From IMG/VR virus record IMGVR_UViG_2700989363_000006: 8,925 bases of DNA; one strand, 5' to 3'. Shown here piece after piece: positions 6,001 through 8,925 of this stretch. This DNA comes from a virus. Taxonomy: Duplodnaviria > Heunggongvirae > Uroviricota > Caudoviricetes. Made by a program: the position numbers. The stretch's first letter is position 1. Each line of letters opens with the position of its first letter.

Positions 6001-8925
6001 GACCAGACAAGCGTCAGCAGCGAAAGGTAGTGCCACGACAGCAACAACGAAAGCATCAGAGGCGGCAGGCAGTGCGACGGCGGCATCTCAGAGCAAAGTT
6101 GCTGCTGAATCCGCGGCAACGCGTGCCGAAACAGCGGCAAAACGGGCAGAGGATATTGCATCCGCCGTGGGGCTTGAGGATGCGAGCACGACGAAAAAGG
6201 GGATAGTACAGCTCAGCAGTGCAACAAACAGCACCAGTGAAAAGCTGGCGGCAACGCCAAAAGCGGTCAAGGCAGCAAATGACAACGCAAATTCACGTCT
6301 GGCGAAAAATCAGAACGGTGCAGATATCCAGGATAAATCAGCTTTTCTGGACAATGTTGGCGTTACTAGCCTGACGTTTATGAAAAACAATGGCGAAATG
6401 CCGGTTGATGCCGACCTGAATACATTTGGTCCCGTTAAGGCTTATCTGGGGATCTGGTCTAAAGCTACCTCAACTAACGCAACACTGGAGAAAAATTTCC
6501 CGGAAGATAATGCTGTCGGTGTGCTTGAGGTTTTTGCTGCCGGCAATTTTGCAGGTACTCAACGCTTTACCACGAGAGACGGCAATGTATACATGCGTAA
6601 ACTCGCCAATAAGTGGAATGGCACTGATGGTCCGTGGGGCGTATGGCGTCACACTCAATCTGCTACCCGCCCTTTGAGTACGACTATAGACCTGAATACG
6701 CTTGGAGCCGCCGAGCATCTTGGTTTATGGCGTAACAGTAGCTCGGCTATAGCTTCATATGAACGCAATTATCCAGAGGAAGGCGGCTTTGCTCAGGGGA
6801 CGCTTGAGATCCTCGAAGGCGGGAATTATGGAAGAACGCAACGTTATACCACTCGCCGTGGAAATATGTATGTCCGCTGCCTTGCGGCAAGCTGGGATGC
6901 ATCAAATCCGCAGTGGGAACCGTGGTTAAGAGTCGGTCATCAGTCAGAGAGTCGTTATTACGAAGGTGATTTGAATGATGTAACCTCACCAGGTATTTAC
7001 AGCGTTACAGGTAAAGCGACCAACGGTCCAGTACTGGACGGAAACGGCGTGACTGTACTCGGCATTCTGGAAGTGTTGAGGCGGTTTGATGGTGTTAATG
7101 TATGGCAGCGTTATACAACTGCCGGAACAGGTACAACCCTTAAAGGCCGCACCTTTGAGCGCGTCTTTACCGGCAGCTCATGGAGCGAATGGCGGGAAGT
7201 CTACACCTCGTATTCACTTCCCCTGAATCTGGGTATCGGCGGTGCTGTGGCAAAGCTCACCAGCCTGGACTGGCAGACCTACGATTTTGTGCCGGGCAGT
7301 CTGATAACCGTTCGGCTTGATAACATGACCAATATTCCCGACGGTATGGACTGGGGCGTCATTGATGGCAACCTGATAAACATCTCAGTCGGTCCGAGTG
7401 ATGATTCTGGTTCGGGACGCTCAATGCATGTATGGCGCAGCACTGTAAGTAAAGCCAACTACCGCTTTTTTATGGTTCGCATTTCAGGAAATCCGGGAAG
7501 CCGCACGATCACGACAAGACGTGTGCCAATTATCGACGAAGCTCAGACATGGATGGCGAAACAGACATTCAGCGGTGGTCTTTCAGGCGAACTATCCGGC
7601 AATGCTGCTACAGCAACAAAGCTGAAAACGGCAAGGACAATTAACGGCGTAAAATTTGACGGCTCGGCAAATATTGAAGCGTTTCCGCCAGGTGTTCCGC
7701 TGCCGTGGCCATCAGATACACCACCTGCAGGTTATGCAATCATGCAGGGGCAGACGTTTGATAAGGCAGCATATCCGAAACTGGCTATTGCCTATCCTTC
7801 AGGTGTTATTCCAGATATGCGCGGCTGGACAATCAAGGGCAAACCCGCCAGTGGCCGGGCCGTATTGTCTCAGGAACAGGACGGCATTAAATCGCACACC
7901 CACAGCGCCAGCGCATCCAGTACGGATTTGGGGACGAAAACCACATCGTCATTTGATTACGGCACTAAATCCACGAATAACACCGGGGCGCATACGCACA
8001 GTCTGAGTGGCTCTACGGGGTCTGCCGGTGTTCATACTCATGGTAATGGTATTCGTTGGCCAGGAGGCGGCGGTTCTGCGTTAGCATTTTATGATGGCGG
8101 TGGGTTCACTTATGTCCAGAATTCACAGTATCAAGTAAGCCCGGAGACTTCTTCCAGTAGATCGTATTATCAACGTATTCAGACACAGTCAGCAGGTGCT
8201 CATACCCACTCGCTGTCTGGTACTGCAGCAAGTTCTGGCGCACATGCACATACTGTAGGTATTGGTGCGCATACGCACTCCGTTGCGATTGGTTCACATG
8301 GACACACCATCACCGTTAACGCTGCGGGTAACGCGGAAAACACCGTCAAAAACATCGCATTTAACTATATTGTGAGGCTTGCATAATGGCATTCAGAATG
8401 AGTGAACAAGCACGGACCATAAAAATTTATAATCTGCTGGCCGGAACTAATGAATTTATTGGTGAAGGTGACGCATATATTCCGCCTCATACAGGTCTGC
8501 CAGCAAACAGTACCGATATTGCACCACCAGATATTCCTGCTGGCTTTGTGGCTGTTTTCAACAGTGATGAGGCATCGTGGCATCTCGTTGAAGACCATCG
8601 GGGTAAAACGGTTTATGACGTAGCGTCAGGGGACGAGTTATTTATTTCTGAACTCGGTCCGTTACCGGAAAATGTTACCTGGTTATCGCCGGAAGGGGAG
8701 TTTCAGAAGTGGAACGGCACAGCCTGGGTGAAGGATACGGAAGCAGAAAAACTGTTCCGGATCCGGGAGGCGGAAGAAACAAAAAACAACCTGATGCAGG
8801 TAGCCAGTGAGCATATTGCGCCGCTTCAGGATGCTGCAGATCTGGAAATTGCAACGGAGGAAGAAAACTCGTTGCTGGAAGCCTGGAAGAAGTATCGGGT
8901 GTTGCTGAACCGTGTTGATACATCA

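Follow-up and report, generated by a model that had tools for sequence, protein, structure and literature searches.

A probable array of three pyocin-type knob domains on a mosaic cassette in a lambdoid side tail fibre gene

The stretch of DNA analysed here, hereafter the window, comprises 8,925 nucleotides of a Caudoviricetes virus (IMG/VR record IMGVR_UViG_2700989363_000006) and contains distal tail genes from a lambdoid prophage, namely the last part of gene I, J, a lom homologue, the side tail fibre gene stf and the start of tfa. Within stf, we consider it likely that positions 6413-7210 encode three tandem knob domains (R1, R2 and R3) with the fold known from pyocin fibres (CDD 'pyocin_knob', cd19958), carried on a mosaic cassette and playing mainly a shaft role. 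An initial reading of the sequence alone, made by a model (hereafter the sequence-only reading), had pointed to this region, and its observation is correct; the domain type that it describes is a known one, and the mosaic around it is typical of tail fibres. The gene is a case of ordinary tail-fibre mosaicism, in which known parts are newly combined, and not a new kind of element.

Counted from its ATG, the Stf protein corresponds to WP_072120530.1 / CST36115.1 of Shigella sonnei, which is recorded from one 8,925-bp contig only; the window is therefore a whole draft-assembly contig. The mechanically called open reading frame (ORF) of stf (4796-8386, 1196 codons) opens at a GTG at 4796, and residue numbers given below count from there. 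Stf has the hallmarks of a lambda-type side tail fibre (Stf/StfR): a PF08400 N-terminus, a place after J and lom with tfa downstream, a Collar domain and a gp37-like, His-rich needle tip. All features and their coordinates are collected in Table 1.

Tandem modules and their fold

The sequence-only reading had described three consecutive homologous modules of 80-93 residues at 6413-7204, and this description holds for Stf residues 540-805 (6413-7210) in pairwise, shuffling, profile and hidden Markov model (HMM) comparisons. Codon 540 of the 1196-residue ORF begins at position 6413 (frame 0), and 7204 lies within codon 803. The internal similarity of R1 and R2 is significant by every measure: they share 43% identity with a pairwise E of 1e-23, a Smith-Waterman z of 33 that none of 2000 shuffles reached, and an hhalign probability of 99.8%. 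For R3, the pairwise similarity to R1 and R2 is weak (E 0.002 and 0.018; z 2.9 and 2.3, with 31 and 61 of 2000 shuffles scoring as high), and the relationship emerges from profile-profile comparison (hhalign E 3-4e-5, probability ~70%). Sixteen invariant columns are common to all three modules (DLN…G.LE…QR.TT…G…R…W..W), and a knob HMM run on Stf places its matches at residues 538-627, 629-720 and 722-805, exactly three domains. R3 is thus confirmed as a true third module, marginal in pairwise comparison and backed by profile and fold. At the DNA level, Tandem Repeats Finder detected no repeat in the block and blastn gave traces only, which argues that the triplication is ancient.

The proposal that these are knob-like beta domains is borne out by an AlphaFold2 model of residues 525-965 and by its structural matches. 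The model is confident across R1-R3 (predicted local distance difference test score, pLDDT, 75-85) and poor past R3. In the model, every module has a short helix, located at the DLN motif, and after it five or six strands. Buth et al. 2018 (PMC6116203) define the knob-like fold as a compact module of ~80-95 residues, based on an antiparallel beta sheet of five or six strands that loops cover, and the modelled R1, R2 and R3 all agree with this in size and strand number. They also resemble Knob1 and Knob2 of the R1/R2 pyocin fibres: in a Foldseek search of the PDB, the best match was the R1 pyocin fibre 6cl5_A (E 1e-7), with staphylococcal phage receptor-binding proteins (RBPs) next. The structural matches, with figures as listed, were phi812 RBP (9.9), AS12 gp42 (9.7), R2 pyocin 6cu2 (8.7), R2 pyocin 6cl6 (8.1), phi11 gp45 (8.0), Pa193 gp47 (7.7), phage K gp144 (7.2) and T4 gp34 (6.7). 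This list contains all four proteins that Buth et al. named as carrying knob-like domains, namely phi11 gp45, K gp144, T4 gp34 and AS12 gp42 (PMC6116203). A profile built from the three window modules alone placed 6cl5_A (within Knob2) and the Pa193 gp47 fibre (9b45_2) at the top of the PDB, at a weak E of 0.006, and NCBI labels fragments that are 54-98% identical to the block as 'pyocin knob domain-containing protein'.

The domain that follows R3, D4 (~125 residues), was considered as a candidate fourth knob; neither hhalign nor shuffle tests relate it to R1-R3. Its AlphaFold2 confidence (pLDDT <40) is insufficient for judging its fold; a 10-sequence profile retrieved no PDB relative and no Pfam model covers it. 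D4 accompanies the knobs in P2-like H proteins, in T6 gp37, in an independent viral contig (L012) and in 35 of the 149 representatives described below, and is absent from one homologue (P0016).

The cassette and its relatives

The knob block belongs to a larger unit that is common to fibre genes of P2-like myophages. Its 792 bp are 90-98.5% identical in DNA to fibre genes in 25 P2-like phage records (Peduovirus, Yersinia pestis phages and E. coli myophages), and 354 of the 5,426 complete E. coli genomes carry the block, mainly in genes with the annotation "phage tail-collar fiber domain-containing protein". Beyond these, the knobs together with D4 are carried by ~160 T-even records at roughly 60% identity. 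Among 1.84 billion representative proteins, the module was matched by 392 clusters at 50% identity, and in the best 149 of these its copy number varies from 1 to 6. One of these relatives (P0172) is itself a lambda-type Stf (PF08400 and Collar) with a single knob just ahead of the collar. P2-like H, T6 gp37 and L012 share the order R1-R2-R3, each module being the orthologue of the one in the same place, so the duplication predates these fibres.

The surrounding gene is lambdoid on both sides. Over residues 1-525, identity to the lambdoid Stf proteins of phages Turner and 204576 is ~91-92%, the shaft DNA is ~91% identical to lambdoid stf genes, and the DNA is lambdoid again from 7703 to the contig end (96.5% to phage 204576). 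The fibre of myophage vB_EcoM-613R2 shares 86% identity with residues 390-1196, and 97% DNA identity across 6177-8000. The adaptor that precedes R1 resembles lambdoid and P2-like genes alike, and residues 434-527 match the Mu fibre protein S (5yvq, 8ju3). Mismatch profiles place two crossovers, one in the adaptor and one in the collar and tip region (Table 1). Horizontal acquisition, which the sequence-only reading had suggested, is therefore shown by homology, at 94-97% nucleotide identity to P2-like fibre genes.

The composition argument originally offered for this acquisition fared differently. The block does have a lower GC content than the shaft (0.504 versus 0.593), and in this numerical sense the statement stands; as a sign of horizontal acquisition it does not. 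The difference is confined to the second codon position, where the shaft reaches a GC content (GC2) of 0.80 because of its 38% Ala, 23% Ser and 12% Thr, and the GC content at third positions (GC3) is equal in shaft and block (0.431 and 0.451), so the contrast is no signature of foreign DNA. We thus rejected GC as evidence of foreign origin: the contrast reflects the amino-acid composition of the shaft. A step in GC3 does exist, from 0.62-0.65 in J, lom and stf residues 1-140 to 0.43-0.54 from stf residue 141 onward, and it lies at the shaft start, upstream of the knob block.

Comparison with the intact Stf of Ur-lambda (774 residues) agrees with the statement of the sequence-only reading that lambda Stf lacks the block: the two can be aligned only over residues 3-354 and 952-1196 of the present Stf, and the knob HMM finds no match in Ur-lambda Stf. 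Both proteins have the N-terminal domain, an Ala/Ser shaft (~100 residues shorter in Ur-lambda), the motif KGIVQLSS...ATPKAVK, the collar, the gp37-like tip, a downstream tfa and the gene order J-lom-stf-tfa. They are colinear through ...ATPKAVK and diverge right after it, where lambda continues with VVMDETNRK. From this motif to the collar, lambda has ~134 residues and no knob module, whereas the window has ~468 (residues ~493-960). The event is therefore best described as a cassette replacement at conserved flanks, in which about residues 493-1035, including the start of the collar, take the place of lambda residues ~386-519. This revises the original idea that three modules had been inserted: a larger cassette was swapped for the central region of lambda Stf. 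The ~1.6-kb cassette is made up of the adaptor, the three knobs, D4 (unrelated to them), a fibre repeat and the first part of the collar, and it circulates among P2-like myophage H genes, T2/T6-type gp37 genes and some siphophage fibre genes. Here it would have come to lie between two conserved lambda-type stf segments, with the proximal crossover in KGIVQLSS...ATPKAVK and the distal one in the collar or early tip.

The P2-like H proteins (P2_2H1, 613R2, 899 and L-413C gpH) are among the closest relatives in architecture, sharing the adaptor, R1-R3, D4 and the fibre repeat. Across residues 462-967, identity is 92% to Peduovirus P2_2H1 (H residues 168-673), 78% to phage 899 and 64% to Yersinia phage L-413C gpH; the 613R2 fibre has a gp37-type tip as well. 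For L-413C gpH, a mosaic make-up has been documented before (PMC7460101, citing Garcia 2008). These H proteins differ from Stf in that they start with a PF12571 (DUF3751) tail-collar fibre domain, which attaches to the P2 baseplate, instead of PF08400 and lack the long Ala/Ser shaft. A Pfam scan of Stf gives PF08400 and no PF12571, and the homology begins only at H residue 168, which sets Stf apart from the P2 gpH family. The canonical P2 gpH (669 residues) differs further in lacking the knob block, which is likewise absent from T4 gp37.

T2/T6-type gp37 proteins share the three knobs and D4 at 59% protein identity (T6 residues 105-517 versus Stf 520-930). There, however, the block is placed close to the N-terminus, and the gp38 adhesin caps the tip. 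T6 gp37, of a type whose N-terminus joins gp36 and whose C-terminus binds gp38, aligns with Stf essentially only over 105-517 and in a short repeat-motif match at 63-106, and the Stf tip is of T4/lambda type and followed by tfa, unlike T2/T6 gp37 with its gp38. T4 gp37 shares the tip only (residues 785-1026).

The R1 and R2 pyocin fibres (PA0620; 6CL5, 6CL6, 6CU2) also resemble Stf. They too have ~83-residue tandem knobs in a trimeric fibre, their Knob1 and Knob2 have the five- to six-stranded antiparallel sheet that is predicted here, and in both cases the most distal knob is the most variable. The pyocin fibres have two knobs, whereas Stf has three, and sequence identity is only ~18-21%. The pyocin knobs precede an iron-binding shaft and a lectin-like foot, while those of Stf precede D4 and a gp37-type needle tip.

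A man-made counterpart was described by Brödel et al. (Nature 2024), who engineered a functional lambda-P2 side tail fibre fused at lambda R393 (PMC11338833). It likewise joins the N-terminal part of lambda Stf to a P2-family distal part, and R393 lies eight residues past the natural divergence point. The engineered fibre ends in the canonical P2 fibre C-terminus, whereas the window gene returns to a lambdoid-type tip and tfa. The value of the natural example is practical more than conceptual: it gives residue-level limits of a portable fibre cassette, with a natural crossover (…ATPKAVK) within eight residues of the fusion site of functional lambda-P2 fibres for DNA delivery. Together with the variable knob copy number among relatives, this is useful for chimeric fibre design and prophage fibre annotation; the understanding of tail fibres is unchanged.

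Knob function and the lambda-P2 junction

By analogy with the pyocin fibres, the most likely role of the knobs is that of shaft beads, and any glycan binding would be secondary. Each module, with its predicted antiparallel sheet and outer loops, could pack with its counterparts from the other two chains around the fibre axis, as in solved trimers, giving one globular bead per module. In the pyocin knobs, the sheet is hydrophobic on both faces, which Buth et al. suggested aids trimer folding (PMC6116203). Three such beads and D4 would add length to the region that links the coiled Ala/Ser shaft to the gp37-type needle, so that the knobs may serve as a modular shaft extension and trimer-folding unit that both lengthens and stiffens the fibre. 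The T4 gp37-like tip, presumably folded by Tfa, would remain the primary receptor binder, and the distal, variable R3 may make a weak secondary glycan contact.

Two comparisons favour such a generic shaft role. A near-identical block (R2-R3 99-100%, R1 95-98%) precedes a P2-type C-terminus in P2_2H1, and in 613R2 and the window it is followed by a gp37-type tip. The block of T6 gp37 spans residues 122-392 out of 994, near the N-terminus and distant from the gp38 adhesin end. The sequence-only reading had raised the block as a candidate host-range determinant; since one block joins different tips and lies far from the adhesin end in T6, this idea lost ground and is kept as a possibility.

Several points weigh against the reading of the block as three shaft-type knobs on a mosaic cassette. 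A single-sequence query with the block gave no Pfam, NCBIfam or PDB match (PDB up to E 10), so the family assignment rests on the fold, the weak profile match and the NCBI name. The predictions are of monomers, and the trimeric packing is inferred from the fibre context. The combination of a lambda-type N-terminus with the three-knob cassette was found in no other sequence searched. Finally, R3 shows 46-61% identity among homologues, compared with mostly 67-85% for R1 and R2 and 71-95% for D4, and this variability could mean that R3 binds something.

The last point leads to a different view of the block, in which the knobs, most likely R3, bind a surface glycan (lipopolysaccharide core or O-antigen) and extend or alter the host specificity set by the tip. 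Knob-like domains are able to bind saccharides, as seen in the K1F endosialidase, whose beta-prism binds sialic acid; in R-pyocin fibres, Knob2 shows the greatest diversity and was proposed as a second binding site (PMC6116203), to which the variability of R3 among homologues is a parallel. The joining of one R2-R3 pair to different tips speaks against it, as do the remoteness of the T6 block from the gp38 adhesin end and the close homology of the present tip to the receptor-binding needle of T4 gp37, and on balance we regard glycan binding that alters specificity as unlikely. A more specific prediction, which we rate as distinctly unlikely, holds that the gene is a natural lambda/P2-type chimera in Shigella sonnei whose knob array, especially R3, forms a second glycan site at least ~100 Å from the tip. 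If true, the fibre would bind at two points in a fixed orientation, as proposed for R-type pyocins, which would alter the host range of a lambdoid phage.

The uniqueness of the junction raises the question of an artefact. None of the 5,426 complete E. coli genomes spanned the lambda-shaft-to-knob junction with at least 80% cover of 5700-6800 (best cover of the whole window, 83%), nor was it spanned in 50,697 phage records, in the best 80 IMG/VR loci, in GTDB representatives or in the 90% cluster of the Stf protein itself. Contigs of other assemblies end at residues 486-594, which marks this region as a repeat boundary. Because the junction is unique and other contigs break there, it might be a short-read assembly chimera that passes from a lambdoid stf into a P2-like H and back via shared segments (~6177-6336 and 7703-8000), all the more as the whole window is a single Shigella sonnei contig and the sole record of the protein. 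Under this reading, the cell would contain no such Stf. Such a chimera would require two wrong joins in one contig, however, and at repeats of this kind an assembler usually ends the contig, as happened in the other assemblies. The reading frame is uninterrupted, and both crossovers fall in conserved motifs, like those of natural fibre recombinants. The independent 45.6-kb contig L012 has an Ala/Ser shaft contiguous with the block (residues 347-967, 87% identity) under another N-terminus, a lambda-type Stf with one knob exists (P0172), the distal junction is also present in phage 613R2, and the engineered lambda-P2 fusion at nearly the same point is functional (PMC11338833). An assembly chimera is thus very unlikely in our view, and the three knob modules are genuine whichever way the junction arose, because they are present in complete phage genomes.

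A recent local tandem triplication or insertion inside a lambda stf gene, for which the tandem arrangement is the sole support, is refuted by the lack of a DNA-level repeat and by the orthologous R1-R2-R3 order shared with P2-like H, T6 gp37 and L012, and we give it next to no credence.

Feature map and neighbouring genes

Table 1. Features of the window (residues of Stf counted from position 4796)
Feature	Position	Strand	Stf residues	Remarks
J	653-4150			1165 aa
lom homologue	4221-4703			
stf, side tail fibre gene	4802..8386	+		1194 aa from ATG 4802; ORF list
Lambda-type Stf N-terminal (particle-attachment) domain	4802..5203	+	3-136	Pfam PF08400, E 4e-72; PDB 9e7m tail fiber protein, E 2e-51
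Ala/Ser/Thr-rich shaft	5216..6175	+	141-460	A 38%, S 23%, T 12%; GC2 0.80
Conserved adaptor	6176..6412	+	461-539	Includes proximal crossover, about 6200-6280
Cassette common with P2-like myophage fibre genes, approximate extent	6270..7900	+		
Probable knob module R1	6413..6691	+	540-632	AlphaFold2 pLDDT about 80
Probable knob module R2	6692..6970	+	633-725	AlphaFold2 pLDDT about 78
Probable knob module R3	6971..7210	+	726-805	Most divergent of the three; most variable among homologues
D4	7211..7585	+	806-930	Fourth domain accompanying the knobs, sequence unrelated to R1-R3
Fibre-repeat linker	7586..7690	+	931-965	Alignment; Pfam PF03406-type motif seen in homologues
Collar and T4 gp37-type receptor-binding tip	7691..8383	+	966-1196	Includes distal crossover, about 7840-7960
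tfa, tail fibre assembly chaperone	8386..8925	+		Translation nearly identical to lambda Tfa; continues past contig end

At the distal end of Stf, the Pfam Collar match covers residues 966-1013, and residues 947-1196 match PDB 2xgf, the T4 gp37 tip (E 3e-79). Three short ORFs in other frames overlap the knob-coding region (6426-6677 on the plus strand, 6470-6718 and 6747-6989 on the minus strand); the ORF list of the window gives no support for any of them being a gene.

Upstream of stf, in the C-terminal part of J (window 2850-4150), the last 265 residues match the PDB chain 'A8 gpJ' (9wca) at E 1.5e-86, and lambda J (8xcj, 8iyk) matches the same residues slightly less well, at about 1e-77. 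The GC content drops from ~0.62 to ~0.48 along this stretch. Because of the A8 gpJ match and this drop, J too may carry a swapped module at its receptor-binding end. The lom homologue appears disrupted: one frame matches residues 1-166 of lambda Lom (38% identity) and ends at a stop at 4703, and the final 14 Lom residues (WRTDGFIVGVGYKF, 100% identical) lie in a different frame just downstream (window 4221-4740). It is probably a pseudogene that arose by deletion or frameshift.

During the searches, lambda stf also turned up, with an identical 85% match, in low-coverage contigs from assemblies of many unrelated species among the GTDB representatives (L176-L193 and similar), for example Leeuwenhoekiella, Pseudomonas, Shewanella, Desulfosporosinus, Oceanobacillus and Kitasatospora. 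Several have a length of ~48.4-48.5 kb, and their presence in those assemblies looks like contamination with phage lambda DNA.

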